Shown: positions 14,839-57,956 of the stretch, piece after piece | Numbering within the stretch: position 1 is the stretch's first letter | Layout: each line of letters starts with the position of its first letter | Virus record (IMG/VR): IMGVR_UViG_3300009163_000025 | Span: 1 to 64,000 of that record | DNA length: 64,000 nucleotides | DNA from: a virus | Reading direction: 5' to 3' (one strand) | Made by a program: the position numbers and the translations under genes | The notes under the pieces: generated by a model | Told to the model about the DNA's origin: nothing | Databases searched by the model: none | What the model saw: the letters and a program-made list of their open reading frames with translations, nothing else

Positions 14839-15856
14839 TTTGTTGAATCCTCATTTCACTTTCGCACATATCAAACACCAAGTCTTTGAATGTATACTCT
14901 GGTGTCCAACCCAAAACAGTTTTTGCTTTAGTGCAATCACCAAAGATCGTTGGCACTTCTGCTGGACGATAAAAGTCTTTGTTCACTTTGATGATAGTCT
15001 TACCCGTAGACTTATTGATGCCGACTTCATCTAAACCTTCACCACGCCATTCAATTTCAAATCCAAGATATGTCGCAACATCATTACAGAAGTCTTTTAC
15101 TGAATGCTCTTCACCACTAGAGATTGCATAGTCATCTGGTTTGTCTTGTTGCAGAATCAACCACATCGCACGAACGTAATCTTTAGCATGTCCCCAATCA
15201 CGCCTTGCTGTTAGATTTCCTAGTTCTAGAATATCTTGCAAACCGAGATGAGTGCGAATCATACCTAGTACAATTTTACGTGTAACAAATTCAGGACCTC
15301 TACGTGGGCTTTCGTGATTAAACAAAATACCATTGCATGAGAATAGATTAAAACTTTCACGATAGTTTACTGTGATCCAATAACCATACATCTTAGCAAC
15401 AGCATAAGGTGAACGTGGATAGAATGGAGTGTTTTCTGTTTGTGGAGTTTCTTTTACCTTACCATACAACTCACTAGTTGATGCTTGATAAAATTTGACT
15501 TGCTTTTCTTTGGCCAATCGTTTGACTGCTTCAAGCAATTTGAGTACGCCAAGAGCATTAACATCACCCGTATATGTTGGGCAATCATAACTTACGCTAA
15601 CGTGGCTTTGTGCGCCTAAGTTATAAACTTCATCTGGTCGCACTTTGATAACAATACTTTCAAGATTAGCCGCATCTGTTAGATCGCTATAGTGAAATGT
15701 AATTCGATGTTTGATATGGTTGATGTTTGCAGTATTGTTTCCTGTACTTGATCGGCGTACAAGACCATGCACATCATAACCTTTTTCAAGTAGAAGTTCT
15801 GCTAGGTAACTTCCATCTTGTCCTGTAATACCCGTAATCAAGGCAGTTTTTTGCAT
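14825..15856 (-). CDS. gmd: GDP-mannose 4,6-dehydratase
   Basis: ITGITGQDGSYLAE, YQASTSELYG, PRSPYAVAK, RDWGHAKDYV. Confidence 0.97.
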   Translation of the reverse strand: MQKTALITGITGQDGSYLAELLLEKGYDVHGLVRRSSTGNNTANINHIKHRITFHYSDLTDAANLESIVIKVRPDEVYNLGAQSHVSVSYDCPTYTGDVNALGVLKLLEAVKRLAKEKQVKFYQASTSELYGKVKETPQTENTPFYPRSPYAVAKMYGYWITVNYRESFNLFSCNGILFNHESPRRGPEFVTRKIVLGMIRTHLGLQDILELGNLTARRDWGHAKDYVRAMWLILQQDKPDDYAISSGEEHSVKDFCNDVATYLGFEIEWRGEGLDEVGINKSTGKTIIKVNKDFYRPAEVPTIFGDCTKAKTVLGWTPEYTFKDLVFDMCESEMRIQQNGNT

Positions 15857-15884
15857 ATTGTATTCATCCTATTTTATTGTGAAA

Positions 15885-16215
15885 TTAGTGACAGGTTATT
15901 CTGTTACGAGGAAACCTGTCGAAACCCTAAGCCGAGTTTAGGCGGCTAATGCGAAACGTGAGTCGTTTGCGTTTACTTTTTTTGCTTGATTAACGGTCAT
16001 CGCCTACCGTGCTGTCCACTCTGTTACTTGTTGCCCTGTCGAATCTAGATCAAGCCCATCATAAAAAGAATAAAAAAAACCAAAATAATAATACTCACTA
16101 CCCCGCAGGTATATTGGTATTTTACTTCAGGATCCATATAGTCTCCTTATGGTGGACTTGGGGGGATTCGCACCCCCGTCCAGGTCACTTTTCTCTTTGC
16201 TTCATACAGCAATAA
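15885..16215 (-). ncRNA. ssrA: Two-piece (circularly permuted) tmRNA, tag ANDSRFALAA
   Basis: Acceptor piece ends ...GGGGGTGCGAATCCCCCCAAGTCCACCA at 16150; coding piece starts GGGCTTGATCTAGATTCGAC at 16057; acceptor stem GGGCTTG/CAAGTCC has the G3:U70 Ala identity pair; tag ORF 15970-15938; outer ends approximate. Confidence 0.92.
16045..16137 (-). CDS. 30-aa single-TM peptide in the tmRNA intervening segment
   Basis: AGGAG SD 5 nt before ATG; MDPEVKYQYTCGVVSIIILVFFILFMMGLI*. Confidence 0.55.
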   Translation of the reverse strand: MDPEVKYQYTCGVVSIIILVFFILFMMGLI

Positions 16216-16216
16216 C

Positions 16217-16420
16217 TTACTCTCTACCCCATTTGATTTTCAACCAAATTCGTTCATGTATATAGTAGTCAACACTTAGCATAATATGCAATGCAGTTGC
16301 AAATCCAGTAGCATTACCTATATCACCGGTAAACAAATAAGTCCAAAAAATTGTAAACGCCCATGCAGTAACACGATATGTTAACATTCTCACTACGGTT
16401 CTTTTCTTTGTTTCAATCAT
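16217..16420 (-). CDS. DUF2061-like small membrane protein
   Basis: ET.KRT......YR....YY.HERIW.KI.WG pattern. Confidence 0.75.
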   Translation of the reverse strand: MIETKKRTVVRMLTYRVTAWAFTIFWTYLFTGDIGNATGFATALHIMLSVDYYIHERIWLKIKWGRE

Positions 16421-29072: not shown

Positions 29073-29543
29073 TCAAGCAATTTTCAATCCTTTAAGTCTA
29101 TCTGCGGCATATGATGCGGCAAACGCTTTTGGTTTCACCATAGGAATTACATTACATGTTCCACGAATGTAACCAATTGCTTCTTGAAGAACACATGAAG
29201 AACCAAACATTTCATTCGGATTAATATCCAAATGAACTTCAACTTCTCTATCTTCTAATACGTCAAAAAGTTTCAAGTATAACTCCGAAAGTTTATATGC
29301 TTCGTTCATTAAACGATAGCGTGGTTTACTAACTTTTTTATCAAAATCTTTTTCACGTATCACTTCACCAAAAAGTTTACATCCATGTTTACCATCGATA
29401 TGAACAACGATTGCAAGTATGTAGTCTGCGTACCAAACACCATCAACACGCAATCTTTCAGAATCGCACCCCAAATAGATTTTAGTCTCAGGCGTCTGTT
29501 TTTCAATGAACTCTTTTACTTCTTCTAAATTTAATTTTGCCAC
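29073..29543 (-). CDS. RNase H-like YkuK family protein
   Basis: IYLGCDS, EVHLDIN, KP.AFAASYAAD. Confidence 0.8.
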   Translation of the reverse strand: MAKLNLEEVKEFIEKQTPETKIYLGCDSERLRVDGVWYADYILAIVVHIDGKHGCKLFGEVIREKDFDKKVSKPRYRLMNEAYKLSELYLKLFDVLEDREVEVHLDINPNEMFGSSCVLQEAIGYIRGTCNVIPMVKPKAFAASYAADRLKGLKIA

Positions 29544-29603
29544 AATATTTCCTAAGTCATGACTACATTATTGCACAATAACAATTGCCTGTCAAGTTAT
29601 TTA

Positions 29604-29677
29604 TGGCATCCCGCCAGGGATTCGAACCCCGATCAACGGTTTTGGAGACCGCTATGTTGCCTTTACACTAGCGAGAT
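29604..29677 (-). tRNA. tRNA-Trp(CCA)
   Basis: Cloverleaf, loop CTCCAAA, encoded CCA. Confidence 0.9.
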
Positions 29678-29679
29678 AT

Positions 29680-29754
29680 TGGTGGGCTTAAGTGGATTCG
29701 AACCACTACCTTATCAATTATGAGTTGACGGCACTACCTTTATGCTATAAGCCC
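29680..29754 (-). tRNA. tRNA-Ile2(CAT), probably lysidine-modified
   Basis: Loop CTCATAA, GGGCTTA acceptor with paired 1:72; Ile2 versus Met assignment is inferred. Confidence 0.75.
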
Positions 29755-29757
29755 AAT

Positions 29758-29842
29758 TGGTATGAGTAGCCGGAATCGAACCGGCATGCCTTGCGGCGAG
29801 AGATTTTAAGTCTCTTGCGTCTACCTATTTCGCCATACTCAC
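29758..29842 (-). tRNA. tRNA-Leu(TAA)
   Basis: Loop CTTAAAA, long variable arm, CCA. Confidence 0.9.
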
Positions 29843-31111
29843 TCAACTACCATCATTTGCGATTTGAAGCCTCAACTCTTGCAGTTGGTGTAAGGTAATT
29901 TTATCGAAAAATCCATAGCCGAAGTGTGTATCAGAATCCATGATTTTAAAATTCTTTTCGTTGAAAACAAAACTTAGCGATCTGTAGTAATTTCTTGAGT
30001 CACCAAAACGCATTGCATGAATGAAATCATGAAACGCATCACTTTCTTCTAAGATTTTTTGCGCTGGTTCTTTAATTCCATTCCAGAATGGTGTATCGTG
30101 AATACTGCCATCACGATACATGTATGCGATAACAGTAGCAACATTATTAATTTCAGCAGATATTACCGCATTTGCTCCTTCTTTTGATCCACCATATGCA
30201 ATATACCCAACAATTGCACGATTGATTGTGTCATATAAGTGTAGTGAATTTGCAAATAGCGGTTCGAAAAATACAGCACGATTACCATTCTTAAAAATTC
30301 TTTTACCAATAATTTGTTTAGCACGATATGAATTGAATTTGTATTCAATATTTTGCAACTCTTCTACAGGAACACCAATCTCTTTAGAGAAATTTTGAAG
30401 TGCTTCTTCTTTCGTTGTTATTGTATCATTAAAAAGATATCCATAACTTTTTCTATTGGTTAATGGCACACCAAACATCCATCCATCCGGTGTCGCTCTA
30501 TGTAATGTATATTTCCATCCTTCTTTATCATCCTCTTGAACATTATGAACAAGGCAATGATTGACTGTTTGAACGGGCATCAAACTGTAATCTTCATATG
30601 ATTTTGGAAACCCACGACAATCTACAACAAAATCGTAATTGTGTTCTTCACCATCGATAACCATAGTGACTTTATCATCATGCTCCGTCATTGAATCGAC
30701 TGTACCAACTACTTCTTTAAATTTTTCACGCCAAACTTTTTTGAGTCTAGGTATTGCAAATTCTCTAAGTTTAAATGTATTAAAATGAATCGCCGCACTA
30801 CCATTAATTAATGGATTGTGAAAGTCGTGTTCACGCCAATTTTCAAATTTTGTTGTTAGTTTTAATGTTGCGTCTAATTCTTCTAAATTATCATACAAAT
30901 TAAATCGTGTACCATATTCAAGCGCAGTAATGAATGTTGGATTTGTACTCTCACCAATTCCTACAATAGGAATAGATGGATCATGAATTGACACAACCTC
31001 AAATTCAAGCCCATCAAGCCAAGCAAGAAAAAAAGATAATGACTGAATGCCAGCACTACCAGTTCCAATAACTGCAACTTTTTTCTTTATGATTTCTTTT
31101 ACACTATGCAT
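29843..31111 (-). CDS. Flavin-dependent tryptophan-halogenase-family protein
   Basis: GTGSAG, VGIGEST.P, AT.K, VDCRGF, GWMFGVP, FFEPL. Confidence 0.8.
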   Translation of the reverse strand: MHSVKEIIKKKVAVIGTGSAGIQSLSFFLAWLDGLEFEVVSIHDPSIPIVGIGESTNPTFITALEYGTRFNLYDNLEELDATLKLTTKFENWREHDFHNPLINGSAAIHFNTFKLREFAIPRLKKVWREKFKEVVGTVDSMTEHDDKVTMVIDGEEHNYDFVVDCRGFPKSYEDYSLMPVQTVNHCLVHNVQEDDKEGWKYTLHRATPDGWMFGVPLTNRKSYGYLFNDTITTKEEALQNFSKEIGVPVEELQNIEYKFNSYRAKQIIGKRIFKNGNRAVFFEPLFANSLHLYDTINRAIVGYIAYGGSKEGANAVISAEINNVATVIAYMYRDGSIHDTPFWNGIKEPAQKILEESDAFHDFIHAMRFGDSRNYYRSLSFVFNEKNFKIMDSDTHFGYGFFDKITLHQLQELRLQIANDGS

Positions 31112-31136
31112 TATTTCTCCTTAACGAATTTTATAA

Positions 31137-31742
31137 TTATTCAACTTTTTTCATCGTATTAAAACTAATAATCACTCTATTCTTAGTTTGATTTTGTTCA
31201 TAGTTTGACCCATGCTTTAACCAACTAGGAAAGAATAAAATATCTCCCGCACCAACTTTAATAGTCCAAAGATCGACAGTATACATTGTTTTGATTTTAG
31301 TTGGTGTTAAACATTTTATTTGATTCAATGGCGCATCAAATGTTATACCTGTACTATCCTCATCAACATTAATGTATATAGCGGCTGATGCCCAACTATC
31401 TGGATGATAATGTTGTTTTAAAACGCTACCTTCATGCTGTATTGCATACCATGAATTTGTGATAGCCAATCGATACATTCCAAATTTTTCTGCGTATTCA
31501 TTAATGCCATTTTCAAGAAATTCATACAGCCCATGACAACTTGGAATATTTTTTTCTAATTCTTGAATGAATAATGTTTCTTCAAGATAACTTGTCCTAA
31601 CGTTTCCAGTTAAAGTGTCGTGTGAAGTGCCGTGTGGTTTTGCCATTATATATTCAAATATATCTTTTCGGCGCTGTTCTTCAATGACACCTCTGTGCCA
31701 TCTAACCAAAGTTGGGAATATATCAAAGTCTATTGTTTCCAT
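31137..31742 (-). CDS. 2OG-Fe(II) oxygenase (TIGR02466-like)
   Basis: HxH..S..SA..Y, FFPSWL.H, R..ISFN. Confidence 0.85.
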   Translation of the reverse strand: METIDFDIFPTLVRWHRGVIEEQRRKDIFEYIMAKPHGTSHDTLTGNVRTSYLEETLFIQELEKNIPSCHGLYEFLENGINEYAEKFGMYRLAITNSWYAIQHEGSVLKQHYHPDSWASAAIYINVDEDSTGITFDAPLNQIKCLTPTKIKTMYTVDLWTIKVGAGDILFFPSWLKHGSNYEQNQTKNRVIISFNTMKKVE

Positions 31743-31743
31743 A

Positions 31744-32265
31744 TCAAACGAAAAATGTAAATGTTAATCGGGAATCTTCAATTGTAGTTCCAAAAAATCT
31801 TTGTGGACGATGAAGTATATTCTTATATAGCACAAGTCGGTTAAATTTATTTTCAACTACAATTTCTTTACCATTTGAAACCAAAATCGTTCCACTATTA
31901 GGTTCAGGTGTTTTATTTAGATAGATCACACCAGCACAAGAACATTGATCTGTGTGCCACCAATGCCGAACTGGTATATCATAATTAGCAAATTCTGGAA
32001 TGATTGCAAGATATGCACTTGCCTTTGTGTAATCGAATTTAACTGACTTTGATACTATTTGTTTCAATGTATCAATTTGAGTCTTACTGATATCCGTAGA
32101 ACGATATCCACGCCACATTGCAGGCGGCCGTGAAGGTTCATTGGAGTCAATTTGAACTCCATCAATAATCCTGTCTTCAAATGTATAATAAGTTGCAATC
32201 CTTGAAAGTGCGACTAATTGATCTGGATCAGATAAAATGTTATCAACTACAATATAATCATTCAT
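31744..32265 (-). CDS. DUF6445-like 2OG-Fe(II) oxygenase-fold protein
   Basis: HTD, AGVIYL....GT, FNRLVLY...H, RLT.TFF. Confidence 0.65.
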   Translation of the reverse strand: MNDYIVVDNILSDPDQLVALSRIATYYTFEDRIIDGVQIDSNEPSRPPAMWRGYRSTDISKTQIDTLKQIVSKSVKFDYTKASAYLAIIPEFANYDIPVRHWWHTDQCSCAGVIYLNKTPEPNSGTILVSNGKEIVVENKFNRLVLYKNILHRPQRFFGTTIEDSRLTFTFFV

Positions 32266-32270
32266 AATTA

Positions 32271-32345
32271 TGGCCCGACCTGAGGGAATCGAACCCCCAT
32301 AATGACTTTAGAAGAATCATGTCCTATCCGTTGAACGAAGGTCGG
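32271..32345 (-). tRNA. tRNA-Arg(TCT)
   Basis: Loop CTTCTAA, CCA. Confidence 0.85.
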
Positions 32346-32352
32346 AATAAAT

Positions 32353-32426
32353 TGGAGCGGGATATGAGAATCGAACTCATAACTGAAGTTTGGAAGACTG
32401 CCGTTTTACCACTAAACTAATCCCGC
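32353..32426 (-). tRNA. tRNA-Gly(TCC)
   Basis: Loop CTTCCAA, U73, CCA. Confidence 0.9.
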
Positions 32427-32429
32427 AAT

Positions 32430-32504
32430 TGGTGGAGATGGAGAGAATCGAACTCTCAATTTCTGGTTGCAAACCAGATGTGTTCCCATTAGCACTACAC
32501 CCCC
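32430..32504 (-). tRNA. tRNA-Ala(TGC)
   Basis: Loop TTTGCAA, G3:U70. Confidence 0.9.
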
Positions 32505-33086
32505 TTAAATATCTTTCTTAACGTAATGACAATTAATTGCAATACTCAATCTATCTTCATCACTACGATTTTCATTTACATAATGCATTAGCCAACTAGG
32601 AAAAATCAAAAGTGTTCCTGCGTTAGGTGCTACAACAAATATACTGCTGTTGAATTCATTATAACTACTAATAATTTCGTCGGAATAAGAATGCAATGCG
32701 GCCGCATTTGGTGTTGTAAATTCTATAGTTCCAAATTCTTTTTTTCCTATTGGATAATAAACCGCACTAAAAAAAGAAGTTGGATGTGTATGAGGTTTGC
32801 TTGTTACATAACAATTATTTATTGTACACCAAGCCTCTCTAATTTTTAAAAAATATTCATCACTAAATCCATATCGTTTGTATACTTCATTAAATTTATT
32901 TTCAACATGATCGAATAAGTCTTTGATAACACCACTAACATTTTCTTGTCTTATCCAAGATTGATGATCCGACATACGATTTTTTTCTGTGATAAGATTT
33001 TTACGACAAAAATTAACAATTGACTCATTGTCCAATGATAATTGATCCACCGCTAAAAATGTTGTAAATATGTTCGTATATTGCAT
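32505..33086 (-). CDS. 2OG-Fe(II) oxygenase (TIGR02466-like)
   Basis: HTHP.S.FSAVYY, IFPSWL.H.V, RLSIA.N. Confidence 0.85.
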   Translation of the reverse strand: MQYTNIFTTFLAVDQLSLDNESIVNFCRKNLITEKNRMSDHQSWIRQENVSGVIKDLFDHVENKFNEVYKRYGFSDEYFLKIREAWCTINNCYVTSKPHTHPTSFFSAVYYPIGKKEFGTIEFTTPNAAALHSYSDEIISSYNEFNSSIFVVAPNAGTLLIFPSWLMHYVNENRSDEDRLSIAINCHYVKKDI

Positions 33087-33106
33087 AAATTCCCCACAAA
33101 ATAAAT

Positions 33107-33180
33107 TGGTCTCGATGGCAAGAATCGAACTTGCGCCTCATGGTCCCAAACCACGAATGATACCATTTCACCACACCGAG
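33107..33180 (-). tRNA. tRNA-Pro(TGG)
   Basis: Loop TTTGGGA, C1:G72, CCA. Confidence 0.9.
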
Positions 33181-33213
33181 TTTTCTCTATTATACATCAA
33201 TCTGCTATCAATG

Positions 33214-33957
33214 TCAAAGCAAATTGATTATATTCTTTACCAGACTGTCTACGTCATTTCTTGTTTTGCCGCCAAGAACAACAATTGCAAATCTGTCTTC
33301 TCTTTTATGTACAATCATCACAACGCATTTACCAGCAAGATTTGTTGTTCCGGTCTTGGACATTTCAATCACATCAAATTTAGATAACAAATTTTTATTT
33401 GTGCTATTGATTTCAATCAATCGCTCTCTATTCTTTTTATCATACACATGAAGATCATATTCACGCAATGATGCAATTTCTTTTATCTTCTCAATGTTAT
33501 ACGCATAATTCAGTAGTGTAACTAACTCAACTGCATTACTCACATTCTTTGGACTCAATCCAGATGGGTCATCAAACTTTGTATTAACCATTCCTAACAT
33601 TTCTGCTTTACGATTCATTTGATATACGAACCATGCTTTACCATGATTGCTATCTGCTAATGCATCGGCTGCCTTGTTGTCACTTTTAACTAATAACAAA
33701 TTCAACAATTCTTCTCTAGTAAATTTTTTGCTAGAGAAAAACATTCCCCTATATGTAACTTTCTCATCCAATGGCAGTCCACTCTCCATGATAACAATAG
33801 CAGTCATCAATTTCGTAATACTTGCAATTGGTTTTACATCATAAATTTCAGAGTCAACTATTGGAATATCTTTTGTTATGTTATGTGCGTAAACTGTTAT
33901 TGCATTTGCATTCATACACATAAAAACTGTGAGTATGCAATATAGTATTTTTTTCAT
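33214..33957 (-). CDS. D-alanyl-D-alanine peptidase, peptidase S11 (PBP5/PBP7-like)
   Basis: SxxK (ASITKLMT), SxN (SDN), KTG motifs; signal peptide. Confidence 0.9.
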   Translation of the reverse strand: MKKILYCILTVFMCMNANAITVYAHNITKDIPIVDSEIYDVKPIASITKLMTAIVIMESGLPLDEKVTYRGMFFSSKKFTREELLNLLLVKSDNKAADALADSNHGKAWFVYQMNRKAEMLGMVNTKFDDPSGLSPKNVSNAVELVTLLNYAYNIEKIKEIASLREYDLHVYDKKNRERLIEINSTNKNLLSKFDVIEMSKTGTTNLAGKCVVMIVHKREDRFAIVVLGGKTRNDVDSLVKNIINLL

Positions 33958-33967
33958 ATTTACTTTC

Positions 33968-34042
33968 TGGTACCTTGTGACAGGATCGAACTGCCGACCT
34001 TCTCCGTGTAAAGGAGTTACTCTACCGCTGAGTTAACAAGGC
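33968..34042 (-). tRNA. tRNA-Val(TAC)
   Basis: Loop TTTACAC, CCA. Confidence 0.9.
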
Positions 34043-34047
34043 GTTAT

Positions 34048-34121
34048 TGGTGCCCCTTGACAGAATCGAACTGCCGTAACCTGATTACAAAACAGGCGTA
34101 ATACCATTATACTAAAGGGGC
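34048..34121 (-). tRNA. tRNA-Thr(TGT)
   Basis: Loop TTTGTAA, CCA. Confidence 0.9.
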
Positions 34122-34140
34122 TCATACTTTATATATCTAT

Positions 34141-34214
34141 TGGCAGAGGGTACAAGAATCGAACTTGTGACAACGGAATCAAAATCCGTGGTTATACCAT
34201 TTAACTAACCCCCA
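34141..34214 (-). tRNA. tRNA-Gln(TTG)
   Basis: Loop TTTTGAT; U1:U72 mismatch; CCA. Confidence 0.88.
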
Positions 34215-34219
34215 ACATT

Positions 34220-34309
34220 TGGTGGAAGCGGTGAGATTCGAACTCACGGACCCTTTCGGATCGACAGTTTTCAAGACTGTTGCCATAAACCTGACTCGAC
34301 CACGCTTCC
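34220..34309 (-). tRNA. tRNA-Ser(TGA)
   Basis: Loop CTTGAAA, long variable arm. Confidence 0.9.
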
Positions 34310-34315
34310 ATTAAT

Positions 34316-34390
34316 TGGCACCCAATGAAGGAATCAAACCTCCAACTCCTCGTTCGTAGCAAGGTGTGATATTCATTTCACTAATCGGGT
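34316..34390 (-). tRNA. tRNA-Arg(ACG)
   Basis: Loop CTACGAA; variant T-loop TTTGATT. Confidence 0.85.
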
Positions 34391-34393
34391 AAT

Positions 34394-34476
34394 TGGTGCC
34401 CCAAGAGAGACTTGAACTCTCACGCACTAGGCACTGGCTTCTAAGACCAGCGTGTCTACCATTCCACCATCGGGGC
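34394..34476 (-). tRNA. tRNA-Leu(TAG)
   Basis: Loop CTTAGAA, long variable arm. Confidence 0.9.
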
Positions 34477-34484
34477 AATATACT

Positions 34485-34558
34485 TGGTACCCAGTAGAGG
34501 TATCGATCCTCTGATTAACGCTTATCAAGCGTTTGTTATACCATTTAACTAACCGGGC
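34485..34558 (-). tRNA. tRNA-Ile(GAT)
   Basis: Loop TTGATAA; T-loop ATCGATA. Confidence 0.85.
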
Positions 34559-34563
34559 ATATT

Positions 34564-34639
34564 TGGTACCGACTTCAGGTTACGATCCTGATTCTCTGGT
34601 TTTTCAAACCAGCGCAATGACCACACTTGCTCAATCGGC
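34564..34639 (-). tRNA. tRNA-Phe(GAA)
   Basis: Loop TTGAAAA; T-loop ATCGTAA; 5' end overlaps the stop of the upstream CDS. Confidence 0.82.
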
Positions 34640-35215
34640 AGAACCATTTCCGTTCTTAAATCCTACTACACCACCTTCTTCTTTGATGCGTTTGATAACG
34701 TCTTCAAAAAGAATTGGCGTGTAATCTGTTTGTTCTACACATACACAATAGTATCTTGGATCGGGAACTGGAACACCATACTTACCTACTGGTTGCATCA
34801 TCACTCTGTTAGAATGTAGATGCCCATGAATGTTCACACCGAATCTTCCAAGACTGTCTACGTGAATAGGAATGTGAGAAAGAATCATTCCGTTCATTAC
34901 ATGATAAGCACGTAACTCTCTAAAATATTTTCTATACTCATCATCACGAAAAATATCGTGATTACCACGAATTAAAACTTTGTCACCATTTAGCCTACTC
35001 ATAATGCCTAGACTTTTACGATTGATAACAACATCGCCTAGATGATAAACTTTATCGTTAGGGCGAACTCTATCATTCCAGCGCCTAACCATTTCTTCAT
35101 CCATCTCATCTGCATTATCCCATGGACGTAGTTTTGTCACACCATCATTACGCATGAATCTACACACACCAGTGTGACCAAAGTGTGTGTCACTAACTAA
35201 AAATACTGATGGCAT
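34631..35215 (-). CDS. Calcineurin-like phosphoesterase
   Basis: SDTHFGH, YHLGD, GNHD, SH.P, HGHLH. Confidence 0.9.
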   Translation of the reverse strand: MPSVFLVSDTHFGHTGVCRFMRNDGVTKLRPWDNADEMDEEMVRRWNDRVRPNDKVYHLGDVVINRKSLGIMSRLNGDKVLIRGNHDIFRDDEYRKYFRELRAYHVMNGMILSHIPIHVDSLGRFGVNIHGHLHSNRVMMQPVGKYGVPVPDPRYYCVCVEQTDYTPILFEDVIKRIKEEGGVVGFKNGNGSAD

Positions 35216-35229
35216 ATATTACTCCTTTG

Positions 35230-35304
35230 TGGGGTGTCTAATGAGGATCGAACTCATACGGAGGGAATCACAATCCCTAATGCTACCACTACATCATAGA
35301 CACC
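35230..35304 (-). tRNA. tRNA-His(GTG)
   Basis: Loop TTGTGAT, encoded G-1:C73. Confidence 0.9.
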
Positions 35305-35312
35305 ATAAAAAT

Positions 35313-35387
35313 TGGTAGGGGCACCGAGAATCGAACTCGGATTAATAGGTTAAAAGCCTACTACTTTAGCCGTTAAGTTATGCCCCC
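35313..35387 (-). tRNA. tRNA-Lys(TTT)
   Basis: Loop CTTTTAA, CCA. Confidence 0.9.
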
Positions 35388-35391
35388 ATAT

Positions 35392-35466
35392 TGGTGGTTC
35401 AGGTTGGATTCGAGCCAACGACCTACTCCGTATGAAGGAGTTGCACTACCGCTGTGCTACTGAACC
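35392..35466 (-). tRNA. tRNA-Met(CAT), elongator
   Basis: Loop TTCATAC, fully paired acceptor stem. Confidence 0.8.
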
Positions 35467-35469
35467 GAT

Positions 35470-35555
35470 TGGTGGAGAATCAGGGATTCGAACCCCGTAT
35501 ACCTTAAGGTGACAGATTTACAGTCTGCTGAAGTCGCCAATGCTTCTCATTCTCC
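35470..35555 (-). tRNA. tRNA-Tyr(GTA)
   Basis: Loop CTGTAAA, long variable arm. Confidence 0.9.
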
Positions 35556-35561
35556 GTTGTT

Positions 35562-35640
35562 TGGCTCCGAGTAAGAGAATCGAACTCTTCTAACCAGTGA
35601 TTAACAGTCACGCCCATGCACCTTGCTCGGGTTTCTCGGA
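35562..35640 (-). tRNA. tRNA-Asn(GTT)
   Basis: Loop CTGTTAA; enlarged D-arm. Confidence 0.85.
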
Positions 35641-35644
35641 ATAA

Positions 35645-35857
35645 ATGCTTTCTCTCTGCGGCGGTAATTATAGTACTAATGGACTCTGAGGACGTCTGTT
35701 TTACCAGACACTCATACCACGTACCCTCCACCCGCTCCCCGACCAGAGAAAACTCTCGTATTGCCAACGCTACTTTGGTAAGAGTAGTACCACACTTGAG
35801 TAACGAACTCACTTCACTTCCTGCGTGTCACAGTAGCCAGACGTTACTCCAGCGGGT
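35645..35857 (-). ncRNA. Unidentified ~210-nt structured RNA between tRNA-fMet and tRNA-Asn
   Basis: GC-rich, multiple nested and pseudoknot-type pairings; no credible ORF. Confidence 0.65.
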
Positions 35858-35858
35858 T

Positions 35859-35931
35859 TGGTTGCAGGTAGTGGTAACGCTCCACTCTCGCTATGGCTTA
35901 TGAGACCATGCGGGTCCTTGACCTACCTGCG
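35859..35931 (-). tRNA. Initiator-type tRNA-fMet(CAT), atypical
   Basis: Loop CTCATAA, C1:A72 mismatch, A73-CCA; short D-arm, T-loop AGCGTTA. Confidence 0.75.
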
Positions 35932-35934
35932 ATA

Positions 35935-36390
35935 TTACTTTATAACTTGTAGATACTCGTAATTAACTGTATCTTCGTTTTCTCTAAACACTATTGCACC
36001 ATTACGTGTATGAAACCTTTTGGCTAAATCAGTCTTTGGTGATAGTGTCACAAATCGTTTAATGTCTGGATTGTTTTCTTTGATAGATTTTACCGCTTCA
36101 AATATCAATGTGCGACCTGCTCCTGGTGCGTAACTCCATATCGTATAGAATACAGCAACATCTGGCGTATCACAAATCTCAAACAACTCAGATTCTTTTG
36201 TTGGAATCATGTTTTGATAACTAACACATGTCATTGCTTTCACTTCATCTTGTTCATTGCGGAACACAAAGATATCTCTGTTCTTTCCGATTCTATCAAC
36301 GTGAGGAATGTTTGGGCGAACTGGATCGTCAATCAAAAATTCAAAAAACTTATCAGTCAATTCTTTTATAGTACGTATCATATTATTCAT
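35935..36390 (-). CDS. Hypothetical protein resembling the GNAT-fold malonyl-CoA decarboxylase C-terminal domain
   Basis: AVFYTIWS, GAGR.LI, KRFVTLSP motifs. Confidence 0.5.
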   Translation of the reverse strand: MNNMIRTIKELTDKFFEFLIDDPVRPNIPHVDRIGKNRDIFVFRNEQDEVKAMTCVSYQNMIPTKESELFEICDTPDVAVFYTIWSYAPGAGRTLIFEAVKSIKENNPDIKRFVTLSPKTDLAKRFHTRNGAIVFRENEDTVNYEYLQVIK

Positions 36391-36414
36391 TTCTTAAAAT
36401 TATAAATCGTCATA

Positions 36415-36422
36415 TATTTATA
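36415..36422 (-). promoter_or_regulatory. T4-type late promoter inside tRNA array
   Basis: TATAAATA on the minus strand, 24 nt upstream of the 36390 ATG. Confidence 0.55.
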
Positions 36423-36429
36423 TAAAATC

Positions 36430-36505
36430 TGGCGGTCTTAGGGGGTAACGATCCCCACTCTTATGGCGTGACAAGCCATCGTGCGTCCATGAACACTTTA
36501 AGACC
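36430..36505 (-). tRNA. tRNA-Asp(GTC)
   Basis: Loop TTGTCAC, G73, CCA. Confidence 0.88.
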
Positions 36506-36510
36506 AATCT

Positions 36511-36598
36511 TGGCGGAGAGTATCAGATTCGAACTGATGCATCGCTTTCGCAATGACGGTTTAGCAAACCGCTGGTTTAACCACTCACCCAACTCTCC
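36511..36598 (-). tRNA. tRNA-Ser(GCT)
   Basis: Loop TTGCTAA, long variable arm. Confidence 0.9.
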
Positions 36599-36604
36599 TT
36601 TGTT

Positions 36605-36681
36605 TGGAATAGGTGACAGGACTCGAACCTGCATGAAACGGATTTGCAATCCGTAGCCTAACCATTCGGCGACACACCTAC
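36605..36681 (-). tRNA. tRNA-Cys(GCA)
   Basis: Loop TTGCAAA, U73. Confidence 0.9.
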
Positions 36682-36692
36682 GTATCTAATTC

Positions 36693-36820
36693 TACCATTT
36701 GTTTTGCTGACGCACTATTTGCAAAGCCTCAACGGAATTGGTGGCCACACTACCGTTTATTGACAGAGTTACTCAAGGTTGACGTTTACCTCATGGCTTA
36801 CGTCAGCAAAACAAATGGTA
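36693..36820 (-). ncRNA. Unidentified ~125-nt RNA closed by a perfect 20-bp inverted repeat
   Basis: 36693-36712 is the exact reverse complement of 36801-36820; internal hairpins. Confidence 0.6.
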
Positions 36821-36890
36821 CTCGGTAGGGGAATCGAACCCCTCTTTCCGGCGTGAAAGGCCAGCGTCCTAACCGATAGACGAACCGAGC
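36816..36890 (-). tRNA. tRNA-Glu(TTC)
   Basis: Loop CTTTCAC, CCA. Confidence 0.9.
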
Positions 36891-36905
36891 ATTTGACAGG
36901 CAAAT

Positions 36906-36936
36906 TGTTAAAGAACATTTGATTGATTTCTCAATC
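36906..36936 (-). promoter_or_regulatory. rrn-like antitermination signal boxB-boxA
   Basis: Hairpin GATTGA-GAAA-TCAATC (36936-36921), then TGTTCTTTAACA (36917-36906); rrn boxA is TGCTCTTTAACA. Confidence 0.7.
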
Positions 36937-36945
36937 TATGAATAG

Positions 36946-37008
36946 AGTATAACACGATACGCTATCCATGTCAACAATATTTTTTGGTACTGTTGTTTTT
37001 TGTAAACA
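36946..37008 (-). promoter_or_regulatory. Sigma70 promoter of tRNA array with upstream box
   Basis: TTGACA(36974-36969)-17-TATACT(36951-36946); degenerate box 36991-37008. Confidence 0.8.
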
Positions 37009-37009
37009 C

Positions 37010-37044
37010 AAATAAAAATCCCCTAGTTTTTTAGGCTAGGGGGC
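37010..37044 (-). terminator. Intrinsic terminator (attenuator)
   Basis: CCCCTAG-loop-CTAGGGG followed by ATTTTTATTT. Confidence 0.85.
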
Positions 37045-37072
37045 TTTTGTTTGCATTTAAGGTTTTTGGTCC

Positions 37073-37186
37073 TCAGGTGCAAGCCCCCATTCCAGGTGTG
37101 TGGCAATCGGCAATCTCAAAGCGAGAATTACCCTGCCAACTTGATGGCATATAATTCGTCTTTGACTGTACCGATAATAGTTTCAT
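37073..37186 (-). CDS. 37-aa leader peptide containing all 20 amino acids (putative attenuator leader)
   Basis: MKLLSVQSKTNYMPSSWQGNSRFEIADCHTPGMGACT*; TAATG overlap with the mazG-like stop; 3' codons complementary to the terminator 5' arm. Confidence 0.75.
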   Translation of the reverse strand: MKLLSVQSKTNYMPSSWQGNSRFEIADCHTPGMGACT

Positions 37187-37484: not shown

Positions 37485-37513
37485 ATTATACACTTGTTCG
37501 AGCAAATTGTCAA
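37485..37513 (-). promoter_or_regulatory. Consensus sigma70 promoter for mazG-leader unit
   Basis: TTGACA(37513-37508)-17-TATAAT(37490-37485). Confidence 0.8.
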
Positions 37514-57485: not shown

Positions 57486-57956
57486 TTATTCACACCAAGA
57501 AGTTTTTGCTTCGCCGTAGTATTCACGGGCTAGCCCGTTTGCAATCAATGCTTGGCGTAAACTTTTTCCGTCTAAGATAACATCACCAAGAAGACGGCCA
57601 CCATACTTGTCCCAATCCATTACAATGACTTGGCGTTTCTTTGCAGAAGTAACTGCTTTTTTTGTGAATTCAGTAGCCTTTTGTCCCATCACATCTTCTT
57701 TTGGGCATTGCGCTCTGAATCCTTTTTCTGGTGTGTCAACACCAAAGACACGGATGCTCAATTCTTTTTTGAGTGGGTCTGGAAGCCAAGGCGCTTCAAC
57801 CGCAACAGTATCCCCGTCAATCACTCTAGTGATCACAGCGTCATACAAAACTCCTGGTTTTTGTTTTCCTGTTTGTGCGTGTGCATTCAATGCAGAAAAT
57901 GTAAATCCTGCAACAATCAATGCAAGAGCAAAAAATACATATGTTAATTGTTTCAT
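57486..57956 (-). CDS. Thermonuclease (SNase family), secreted
   Basis: RVIDGDT, IRVFGVDTPE, DKYGGRLLG, GLAR.Y. Confidence 0.9.
   Translation of the reverse strand: MKQLTYVFFALALIVAGFTFSALNAHAQTGKQKPGVLYDAVITRVIDGDTVAVEAPWLPDPLKKELSIRVFGVDTPEKGFRAQCPKEDVMGQKATEFTKKAVTSAKKRQVIVMDWDKYGGRLLGDVILDGKSLRQALIANGLAREYYGEAKTSWCE

Follow-up and report, generated by a model that had tools for sequence, protein, structure and literature searches.

The purpose of the tRNA genes carried by phages has been debated for more than 50 years; the proposals are compensation for codon usage, substitution for a host pool that is degraded and evasion of defences that cut tRNAs. The Xanthomonas jumbo phage XacN1 is reported to carry 56 tRNAs for all 20 amino acids (PMC5852040), and the Shigella phage Sf14 is credited with 26 tRNAs for 19 amino acids (PMC12482277); these sets are redundant or incomplete. 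Phage T5 (NC_005859), a siphovirus of the Demerecviridae, has 25 annotated tRNA features, one of them a pseudogene, which fill 23 of the 25 decoding jobs distinguished here (8 family boxes, 12 two-codon sets, Trp, Ile-AUY, Ile-AUA, Met and the initiator). Experimental support for phage tRNAs that replace or outlast those of the host comes, in what PMC11464382 and PMC10264068 relate, from single T5 tRNAs; for example, T5 tRNA-Lys rescues infection when PARIS cuts host tRNA-Lys (PMC11464382). Here we describe a minus-strand array at positions 29604-36890 of a 64,000-nucleotide stretch of phage DNA (the window), which is the first 64 kb of the 88,348-bp IMG/VR virus record IMGVR_UViG_3300009163_000025. 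The array holds 25 tRNA genes with no duplicate and no gap; among natural examples of complete sets without spares, it is about the cleanest. We consider it somewhat better than an even bet that these genes form a complete stand-by decoding kit, with extra transcription under the control of a leader, and this reading would account for the sequence best.

T5 is without Leu(UAA) and Arg(ACG), both of which the window phage has, and its extras are Ser(GGA) and the Gln(CUG) pseudogene. In both phages, the Thr, Gly, Ser-UCN, Leu-CUN, Ala, Val and Pro boxes are each read by a U34 tRNA alone, separate genes encode fMet, Met and Ile2(CAU), and the genes lie in one-strand blocks together with small frames and stable RNAs of uncertain role (8 misc_RNA features in T5). 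Both sets also have atypical members; at its default setting, ARAGORN misses T5 Gly, Trp and Ile2. Judged from its genes, the window set is the T5 pattern brought to completion, and the type of set is already known. T5 is a siphovirus whereas the window phage is T4-like, and a megablast search with the array gave no T5 match. No leader covering all amino acids is annotated in the T5 stretch examined, T5 not having been searched for one.

A second comparison is with plastids, where tobacco knock-outs led to a minimum of 25 tRNA species that read by wobble and superwobble (Alkatib et al. 2012, as presented in PMC4086613). This minimum is described as rare in nature, superwobble being inefficient (Tiller and Bock 2014, PMC4086613). 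The anticodons of the window set equal those of the plastid minimum, with one U34 tRNA per family box, G34 for NNY, U34 for NNR and three CAU tRNAs, so that the likeness to minimal superwobble sets claimed in an earlier sequence-only reading of this DNA is borne out, as far as PMC4086613 lays that minimum out. The plastid set differs in being the sole pool, with U34 unmodified in Gly(UCC) (PMC4086613), whereas the phage has a full host pool present, at least initially. A literature search, with subscription journals outside it, found no paper that equates phage tRNA sets with the superwobble minimum. An abundant lake-phage clade that retains the 25-species minimum provides a second natural system for the efficiency of U34-only decoding.

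The genes of the array are the following, in their order on the minus strand, with ARAGORN scores and, where given, scores on the Rfam tRNA model:

36816-36890, minus strand: tRNA-Glu(TTC), first gene of the array; ARAGORN 115.2, Rfam 56.6 bits
36605-36681, minus strand: tRNA-Cys(GCA), with U73; ARAGORN 108.8, Rfam 45 bits
36511-36598, minus strand: tRNA-Ser(GCT), with long variable arm; ARAGORN 115.2, Rfam 58.5 bits
36430-36505, minus strand: tRNA-Asp(GTC), T loop ATCGTTA (A54/U58); ARAGORN 107.7, no Rfam match at E<=1
35859-35931, minus strand: initiator-like tRNA(CAT), T loop AGCGTTA; ARAGORN 97.0, only at -ps90
35562-35640, minus strand: non-canonical tRNA-Asn(GTT), 79 nt; ARAGORN 98.7, only at -ps90
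35470-35555, minus strand: tRNA-Tyr(GTA), with long variable arm; ARAGORN 112.9, Rfam 28.1 bits
35392-35466, minus strand: tRNA(CAT) of class II, read as elongator Met, T loop CTCGAAT; ARAGORN 116.5
35313-35387, minus strand: tRNA-Lys(TTT); ARAGORN 117.8, Rfam 67.3 bits
35230-35304, minus strand: tRNA-His(GTG), with G-1 encoded at 35304 opposite C73; ARAGORN 109.8
34564-34639, minus strand: tRNA-Phe(GAA), T loop ATCGTAA; ARAGORN 105.6, Rfam 42.7 bits
34485-34558, minus strand: tRNA-Ile(GAT), T loop ATCGATA; ARAGORN 108.1, Rfam 60.5 bits
34394-34476, minus strand: tRNA-Leu(TAG); ARAGORN 115.9, Rfam 57.3 bits
34316-34390, minus strand: tRNA-Arg(ACG), the sole A34 gene, T loop TTTGATT; ARAGORN 110.1, Rfam 51.3 bits
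34220-34309, minus strand: tRNA-Ser(TGA); ARAGORN 118.8, Rfam 52.5 bits
34141-34214, minus strand: tRNA-Gln(TTG), with U1xU72 and G73; ARAGORN 110.0, Rfam 58.7 bits
34048-34121, minus strand: tRNA-Thr(TGT); ARAGORN 106.8, Rfam 64.3 bits
33968-34042, minus strand: tRNA-Val(TAC); ARAGORN 108.5, Rfam 58.3 bits
33107-33180, minus strand: tRNA-Pro(TGG), with C1:G72; ARAGORN 116.5, Rfam 59.5 bits
32430-32504, minus strand: tRNA-Ala(TGC), with G3:U70; ARAGORN 112.4, Rfam 57.7 bits
32353-32426, minus strand: tRNA-Gly(TCC), with U73; ARAGORN 114.4, Rfam 66.9 bits
32271-32345, minus strand: tRNA-Arg(TCT); ARAGORN 118.0, Rfam 51.9 bits
29758-29842, minus strand: tRNA-Leu(TAA); ARAGORN 116.8, Rfam 57.9 bits
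29680-29754, minus strand: tRNA(CAT) of class III, read as Ile2 (lysidine type); ARAGORN 118.9
29604-29677, minus strand: tRNA-Trp(CCA), with A1:U72 and G73, last gene of the array; ARAGORN 122.4, Rfam 56.1 bits

tRNA genes were called over the whole contig with ARAGORN, at its default and then with thresholds lowered to 90% (-ps90) and 80%, and with the Rfam tRNA model at its gathering cut-off of 29 bits, with sub-threshold matches listed to E<=1. The default setting found 23 genes, all on the minus strand within 29604-36890, and the 90% setting added exactly two, Asn(GTT) at 35562-35640 and the CAT gene at 35859-35931. At 80%, the next best candidate anywhere on the contig scored 89.1, against 98.7 and 97.0 for these two, and both are therefore clear of noise. 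The Rfam gathering score was passed by 21 of the 25 genes; tRNA-Tyr fell short of it at 28.1 bits, and no Rfam tRNA match at E<=1 was obtained for Asp, Asn or the initiator-like gene. The genes below the model cut-offs still fold as cloverleaves and have conserved homologues. Twenty-five tRNA genes within 7.3 kb, on a single strand of a contig with T4-like replication genes, make this a phage tRNA cluster.

An N73-CCA 3' end is encoded in all 25 genes, and CCA is also encoded in 1127 of 1139 tRNAs scoring at least 100 in the window's contig and related loci. Bacterial identity elements can be read from the sequences: tRNA-Ala has G3:U70, tRNA-Pro C1:G72 and tRNA-Gln U1xU72 with G73, U73 is found in tRNA-Cys and tRNA-Gly, tRNA-His has an encoded G-1 that faces C73, tRNA-Trp has A1:U72 and G73, and the variable arms of Leu, Ser and Tyr are long. 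The array members look like working bacterial-type tRNA genes. Their anticodons are the 23 triplets listed above, with CAT occurring three times, and there is no duplicate and no empty codon box. A tally against the 25 jobs gave 0 missing and 0 extra for the 88 kb, or 52% of the genome, and neither ARAGORN nor Rfam found another tRNA in the remaining 81 kb of the contig. U34 occurs in seven of the eight four-codon boxes, the Arg box being served by ACG. The sequence-only reading had listed these 25 genes with the same coordinates and anticodons, a CCA on each, and all 20 amino acids covered by one tRNA per box, with U34 in every four-codon box except Arg; all of this was reproduced, and the rest of the contig showed no redundant tRNA.

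Relatives of the array were collected with the 151-amino-acid (aa) protein encoded inside it (35935-36390) as an IMG/VR probe. Relatives of this protein are encoded by 589 of 600 candidate stretches, from which the best 80 loci were kept (related IMG/VR loci are denoted L001 etc., and the window's contig WIN). Among WIN and these 80 loci, 17 arrays have at least 20 tRNAs and both flanks, and five of the 17 (WIN, L001, L012, L013 and L014) contain exactly the 25; L019 and L040 contain all 25 plus extras. L012-L014 share about 70% probe-protein identity with the window and have a different tRNA gene order. L001 (7205-12793) has 99% probe-protein identity and an identical tRNA order, and differs from the window in spacer lengths, inserted frames, the Asn gene (canonical in L001, non-canonical in the window) and a 218-nt element (84% identity). 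The array is a mosaic recombination hot spot in which the complement is kept, and the relatives indicate selection on the completeness of the tRNA set itself. Two relatives of 100% completeness, 168 kb and 159.7 kb in length, have 25 and 24 Rfam tRNA matches, respectively, each time confined to a single array, which makes a second cluster in the unseen half of the phage genome less likely.

Several relatives' arrays have extras, namely Gly(GCC), Thr(GGT or AGT), Leu(CAA), Ile(TAT) and Arg(TCG). Arg(TCG) takes the place of Arg(ACG) in L023, L026, L028, L033, L035 and L037, which gives these arrays U34 in every family box, and both occur in others, including L062, L067-L068, L070-L071 and L075. 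The replacement would remove the need for A34-to-I34 deamination.

The three CAT genes had been named fMet, Met and Ile2 from sequence alone. The window and the 80 loci together contain 123 CAT genes with 77 unique sequences, which form three classes that recur throughout the clade. They were compared by script with E. coli ileX, metT/metU and metZ/W/V from NC_000913 (K-12), at what we take to be the coordinates of these genes. The class III gene (29680-29754) has C4:G69 and G27.U43, as in ileX, whereas metT has U4:A69 and C27:G43. According to Ikeuchi et al. (2005), C4:G69 and G27.U43 reportedly separate E. coli tRNA-Ile2 from tRNA-Met. The gene is without C5:G68 (U5:A68 instead), and its identity is 0.62 to ileX versus 0.56 to metT, clade members reaching up to 0.83 to ileX. 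Class I has a 1x72 mismatch, G2:C71 and C3:G70, like metZ. Class II (35392-35466) has the anticodon loop UUCAUAC (U32, C38) and often C54, features kept clade-wide; its nearest E. coli reference is metT at 0.65, with ileX at 0.62, which is too close for naming by identity, and elongator Met is therefore presumed by elimination. BLAST searches with both 75-nt CAT genes as queries gave no match in E. coli genomes. The names given earlier are thus supported by three classes that fit initiator, elongator Met and Ile2, the fit being weakest for the initiator. The UUCAUAC loop of class II can be set beside the tRNase-evading anticodon-loop changes proposed in PMC10264068, and may exemplify a change of that kind.

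Upstream of tRNA-Glu lies a leader that resembles an attenuator. The order on the minus strand is promoter, MazG-like gene, leader frame, terminator, promoter, boxA-like element and tRNA-Glu, and a further promoter lies within the array:

37485-37513, minus strand: sigma-70-like promoter for the MazG-like gene and the leader; 12 of 12 consensus positions
37073-37186, minus strand: leader frame of 37 codons, its ATG overlapping the stop of the MazG-like gene
37081-37088, minus strand: candidate antiterminator segment GGGGGCUU, leader codons 33-36, which pairs with AAGCCCCC
37008-37048, minus strand: intrinsic terminator, stem 37042-37020 with the 5' arm extended from 37048, followed by a T run
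36946-36974, minus strand: sigma-70-like promoter before tRNA-Glu (TTGACA-17-TATACT, with TG); 11 of 12 consensus positions
36905-36917, minus strand: boxA-like TGTTCTTTAACAA, 15 nt upstream of tRNA-Glu, the sole match in the window
33189-33217, minus strand: second sigma-70-like promoter in the array, before tRNA-Pro; 12 of 12 consensus positions

The leader peptide, MKLLSVQSKTNYMPSSWQGNSRFEIADCHTPGMGACT, contains all 20 amino acids in 37 residues, one to five times each, and its codons need 23 of the 25 tRNA species, the exceptions being Ile2 and Arg(UCU). Peptides simulated from the codon usage of the phage (106 reading frames of at least 80 codons, 24,165 codons, taken by a simple longest-open-reading-frame rule) contain all 20 amino acids with P = 0.0027 and need at least 23 jobs with P = 0.0032, and among 197 ATG frames of 30-45 codons on the contig the leader alone reaches 20 amino acids. 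Its codons are also rare ones: a value like the codon adaptation index (CAI) is 0.526, as against a gene median of 0.70, and values as low are found in 0.5% of 617 windows of equal length from phage genes and in 0.13% of synonymous redraws. There are no runs of regulatory codons.

The candidate antiterminator GGGGGCUU forms eight Watson-Crick pairs with AAGCCCCC, which is matched by 10 of 5000 shuffles and by 0 of 2379 other windows when the terminator arm is lengthened by 6 nt, as in L012, a choice made after viewing the sequence; with the un-extended arm (perfect 7-bp stem) there are four pairs only, and 744 of 2000 shuffles are as good. The free minimum-energy fold is the antiterminator (-27.7 kcal/mol). 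Blocking the last 10 codons, the stop and the next 12 nt, as a ribosome at termination would, turns the fold into the terminator (-12.5 kcal/mol). The leader thus has a short frame, a terminator and a competing antiterminator that a ribosome could mask, and its translation is predicted.

In the trpL, hisL, pheL, leuL and thrL leaders, which control biosynthetic genes, one or a few kinds of regulatory codon occur in runs. The phage leader shares with such attenuators the short frame, the terminator and a pairing of the frame end with the 5' arm that a ribosome could prevent; it differs in using every amino acid, in its rare codons and in standing before tRNA genes.

A survey of ATG frames of 25-50 codons on the array strand of the 81 sequences gave 1836 frames, 32 of which use all 20 amino acids. 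A terminator follows 81 of the 1836 frames, and 17 of the 32 belong to these; the 1755 frames without one include the other 15. Each of the 17 lies 86-437 nt upstream of a tRNA gene, and they encode 12 distinct peptides; the loci are related, and the 17 are not independent events. Another seven frames with a terminator occupy the same position and use 18 or 19 amino acids; they encode five distinct peptides. The peptide sequences have diverged so far that they are hardly recognizable as related, yet the full amino-acid alphabet is retained. Moreover, in 10 of 13 distinct leaders the last 10 codons form 7-9 Watson-Crick pairs with the 5' arm of the terminator, and the paired sequences are lineage-specific, as in GAGGUUU/AAACCUC, CUAGGGGUU/AACCCCUAG, GGGUUCUG/CAGAACCC and UCUCGGGG/CCCCGAGA. 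For 8 of these 10, no more than 25 of 2000 shuffles do equally well; counting WIN with its extended arm, 11 of 13 leaders pair. No such pairing was seen in the leaders of L028 and L015. In many relatives (L003, L006, L010, L011, L019, L028), a TATAAT-like hexamer ends 6-7 nt before the leader ATG, which suggests that their leader is perhaps a leaderless transcript with its own promoter, that of the window being coupled to MazG.

We put at about even the chance that the leader is a universal decoding sensor that meters the tRNA set. It would then be a new kind of attenuator, multivalent over all codons and governing tRNA genes instead of biosynthetic ones, with covarying arms kept in a large clade of freshwater T4-like phages. 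The putative all-amino-acid attenuator is the novel element here and probably deserves to be treated as a separate finding; a literature search, with subscription journals outside it, gave no account of a leader of this type in front of phage tRNA genes. If this reading is true, the sensor leader would be direct genetic evidence for phage tRNAs as an on-demand back-up. The leader makes the back-up hypothesis accessible to a simple reporter assay, and it points to a compact, naturally occurring sensor of total decoding capacity, which synthetic biology might put to use.

The array could work as follows. As a non-redundant stand-by kit, it would serve each of the 25 jobs with a single tRNA gene. 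It would be driven by its own strong sigma-70-type, early-type promoters behind a boxA-like leader, host RNases would process the transcripts and host synthetases would charge the products. The kit would then sustain phage translation when any charged host tRNA runs short, whether through shut-off, through tRNA-cutting defences or through the small tRNA supply of a slow-growing host. Under adequate supply, a ribosome at the leader stop would mask GGGGGCUU, the terminator would form and transcription would end. A ribosome stalled on a hungry codon would instead free GGGGGCUU to pair with the 5' arm of the terminator, and this antitermination would let transcription from the MazG promoter read into the tRNA genes. 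Within this scheme, we infer the expression and charging of the genes, the modification state of U34, the attenuation and the cause of the host tRNA shortage. Yang et al. are said to have treated, in 2021, the degradation of host machinery together with viral tRNAs.

The same promoter region holds some of the points that weigh against this explanation. The promoter at 36974-36946 lies between the terminator and tRNA-Glu, so that the array is independent of read-through and the contribution of the attenuator may be small. A clear Shine-Dalgarno sequence is missing from the leader. About half of the phage genome lies outside the contig, given a CheckV completeness of 52%. Two of the 25 array genes are structurally aberrant, and Rfam misses three and puts a fourth under its cut-off; the initiator-like gene in particular is unusual in its D and T loops and has only two G:C pairs by the anticodon loop, where three are usual. 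Among the 67 of 106 reading frames (at least 80 codons) that were covered by the protein-family scan, 60 against Pfam and 7 against PHROGs only, no family for host-tRNA destruction or for repair or modification of phage tRNAs was found. Absent from these 67 frames were, specifically, a CCA-adding enzyme, RNA ligase or kinase, peptidyl-tRNA hydrolase, synthetase, TilS, formyltransferase and tRNA-modifying families. In the arrays of many relatives, Gly(GCC) is present as an additional gene, which speaks against self-sufficiency, and so does codon usage: GGT (51%) and GGC (20%) make up 71% of Gly codons as GGY, and GTT (51%) with GTC (9%) gives a GUY share of 59% for Val. For these codons a lone U34 tRNA depends on U:U or U:C wobble, so that phage genes would be poorly served at Gly and Val by the kit alone.

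This heavy GGY and GUY use argues for a back-up or top-up rather than an efficient wholesale replacement; it makes the same point as the inefficiency of superwobble, and host tRNAs would still matter. The poor reading of Gly codons by U34 fits the recurrent extra Gly(GCC) of the relatives. The earlier claim of a full replacement pool in place of a codon-bias supplement is plausible and supported in part: coverage of Met, Trp, fMet and every box, kept despite shuffled gene order, supports a pool over a supplement, whereas the Gly and Val codons, the extra Gly(GCC) of relatives and the two aberrant genes weigh against full self-sufficiency. The earlier warning that CGG may be poorly read if A34 becomes I34 has little effect, as CGG, whose usage was counted, is rare (26 of 1017 Arg codons).

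Each of the rival explanations accounts for less than a stand-by kit. The one that survives best, which we nonetheless hold to be unlikely, is a constitutive boost of capacity: slow-growing, streamlined and tRNA-poor lake hosts would be given more total tRNA for a large burst, host tRNAs would persist, and the terminator upstream would be an ordinary operon end. The freshwater and lake metagenome origin is in keeping with this, a minimal set is the one with the fewest genes, and the array contains two strong, constitutive-looking promoters (11/12 and 12/12) and a boxA-like element of the rRNA-operon type. The rrn-type boxA consensus is TGCTCTTTAACAA, located downstream of the promoter. From its -10 element onward, the tRNA-Glu promoter is 94-96% conserved in L010, L012, L013, L019 and L022, and exact copies of TGTTCTTTAACAA occur in L001, L070, L071 and L075; a boxA pattern with one mismatch allowed has at least one match in 52 of 100 shuffles. 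What a capacity boost leaves unexplained is the occurrence of all 20 amino acids in 12 distinct terminator-linked peptides, the rare codons of the leader and the covariation of its last codons with the terminator arm.

Still less probable, in our view, is a supplement for codon usage, which is described as the most widely accepted hypothesis (PMC10264068). An AT-rich phage (36.9% GC) would thereby boost A- and U-ending codons that a higher-GC host serves poorly, and the U34-only pattern would reflect codon bias rather than a self-sufficient set. Third positions are indeed rich in A and U, and NNA, the cognate codon of U34 tRNAs, is the commonest for Ala (0.56), Pro (0.52) and Thr (0.49); C-ending codons are the rarest in six family boxes (5-9%). 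The set is indiscriminate, however, in that it includes Trp, Met, the initiator and every NNY box, without any synonymous choice between tRNAs, and Gly and Val are dominated by U-ending codons (0.51 each), the worst for U34. Moreover, the complete complement is kept while gene order changes, and a leader with all 20 amino acids would sense every amino acid and not a biased subset. Given the coverage of Met, Trp, fMet and every box despite shuffled order, a stand-by pool fits better than a codon-bias supplement.

The two aberrant genes bear on a third alternative. Bacterial initiators combine a 1x72 mismatch with G2:C71 and C3:G70, and three G:C pairs close the lower end of their anticodon stem. 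The initiator-like gene has C1xA72, G2:C71 and C3:G70, as does E. coli metZ, and G29:C41 and G30:C40, but U31.G39; moreover, its D arm is a hairpin of 4 bp whose loop has 3 nt, its anticodon stem is longer by three pairs and its T loop reads AGCGUUA. Its minimum-energy fold is nevertheless the cloverleaf (z -3.0). The copy in L001 differs by one base, and the L006-L008 copies show a compensatory change from C:G to A:U in the stem extension and one more A:U pair in the D stem. The Asn(GTT) gene, of 79 nt, has an 11-nt D loop and an A7xA66 mismatch, and its minimum-energy fold is also the cloverleaf; compared with its L032 homologue, it shows six double-compensatory pairs by hand count (acceptor stem 2, anticodon stem 1, T stem 3). 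Conservation with compensatory changes argues that both are selected RNAs, with a putative role in decoding.

That the cluster is decayed or hitch-hiking in a hyperplastic region, with the initiator-like, Asn, Asp and Tyr genes as pseudo-tRNAs or nuclease decoys and the exact count of 25 a coincidence, is very improbable: 4 of 25 genes do fail the Rfam gathering score and 2 of 25 the ARAGORN default, and the array is a mosaic, the near-identical L001 having a canonical Asn gene and different spacers at the same places, but the compensatory changes in Asn (six pairs against L032) and in the initiator-like gene (against L006) go against decay, the aberrant initiator is the sole initiator-like gene in WIN, L001 and L006-L008, and the proven tRNAs of T5 include three that ARAGORN misses.

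The contig that carries this putative stand-by set is, by its gene content, that of a T4-like freshwater myovirus. Pfam and PHROGs matches include gp32, gp59, the gp44 clamp loader, T4 RNase H and a UvsX-like RecA, and further genes encode a family-B polymerase, DnaB-like helicase, PhoH, MazG, ribonucleotide reductase (RNR), ThyX and several 2OG-Fe(II) oxygenases. The phage DNA is present in freshwater and lake metagenomes, and no RNA data set was among the entries listed for the array. No close cultured relative was found: megablast of 29500-37100 gave only a 97-nt tRNA-Ser match in two Xanthomonas jumbo phages, and distant blastn of 33900-37000 gave 1038 records, each covering 11% of the query or less, so that the likeness is at the level of single tRNAs only. 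The RNR large subunit has at most 63% identity to any record.

A permuted (two-piece) tmRNA with the tag ANDSRFALAA was found by ARAGORN and Rfam at 15847-16242 on the minus strand, so that both the attenuator and the phage tmRNA invoked by the sequence-only reading are present, the former as an attenuator-like leader. It scores 132 bits on the Rfam tmRNA_permuted model and 116.4 on beta_tmRNA, the best among the clan families, and this betaproteobacterial match is the only hint at the host. Two-piece tmRNAs are described as typical of aquatic phages, and the OM43 phage Melnitz and the pelagimyophages are, like the window phage, T4-like aquatic myoviruses with a permuted tmRNA (PMC9004378). 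According to the same source, Melnitz has 4 tRNAs, as against 25 in the window phage, and its tmRNA was placed with Alphaproteobacteria, whereas that of the window is best on the betaproteobacterial model.

Other proteins of the contig were considered in connection with tRNA. A staphylococcal-nuclease homologue (PF00565, 49.8 bits) at 57486-57956 on the minus strand adjoins the RNR genes; it could degrade host nucleic acid, a link to tRNA being speculative. Three 2OG-Fe(II) oxygenases, a Trp-halogenase-like protein and a metallophosphoesterase encoded in the array were rejected as tRNA modifiers, there being no supporting family match. The 'ligase-like' and 'nucleotidyltransferase' proteins at contig positions 71150-75225 (L085 7150-11225, minus strand) were likewise set aside, as they match only DUF6267 (361.5 bits) and DUF5824 (73.1 bits), with no RNA-ligase or CCA-adding family match in Pfam.

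Some tRNAs of the array have unusual T loops. The usual T-loop pair is the reverse-Hoogsteen T54-A58, and Asp, Phe and the initiator-like gene have A54 with U58, Ile(GAT) having A54 with A58. The A54/U58 swap occurs in 14 of 648 unique clade tRNAs, six of which are Asp, and tRNAs with A54 would be without m5U54. The T loop TTTGATT of Arg(ACG) is retained in 10 of 12 unique clade copies.

Two spacers of the array may encode structured RNAs. That between tRNA-Glu and tRNA-Cys (36682-36815, minus strand, 134 nt) folds into a domain with a closing stem of some 17 bp (-39.4 kcal/mol, z -3.4) and is reminiscent of the stable RNAs in the T5 tRNA region; it is 78-89% conserved beside tRNA-Glu in L003, L004, L006-L008, L013, L022, L040 and L062, with no match in the near-twin L001 and no Rfam family. 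The spacer between the initiator-like gene and Asn (35641-35858, minus strand, 218 nt) is GC-rich and RNA-like, with a fold z of only -2.0 and no Rfam match; it is 83-84% conserved in L001, L003, L004 and L006-L008, and partially in 14 more loci. The 151-aa protein encoded inside the array (35935-36390, minus strand) has no PHROG match, and its sole Pfam match is a weak one to the malonyl-CoA decarboxylase C-terminal (GNAT-fold) domain (24.7 bits). Its gene adjoins tRNA genes in most of the 80 loci, and the protein has the invariant motifs DPVRP, TCVSY, FYTIWSY-PGAG, TLSP-T, FH-NGA and NYEY.

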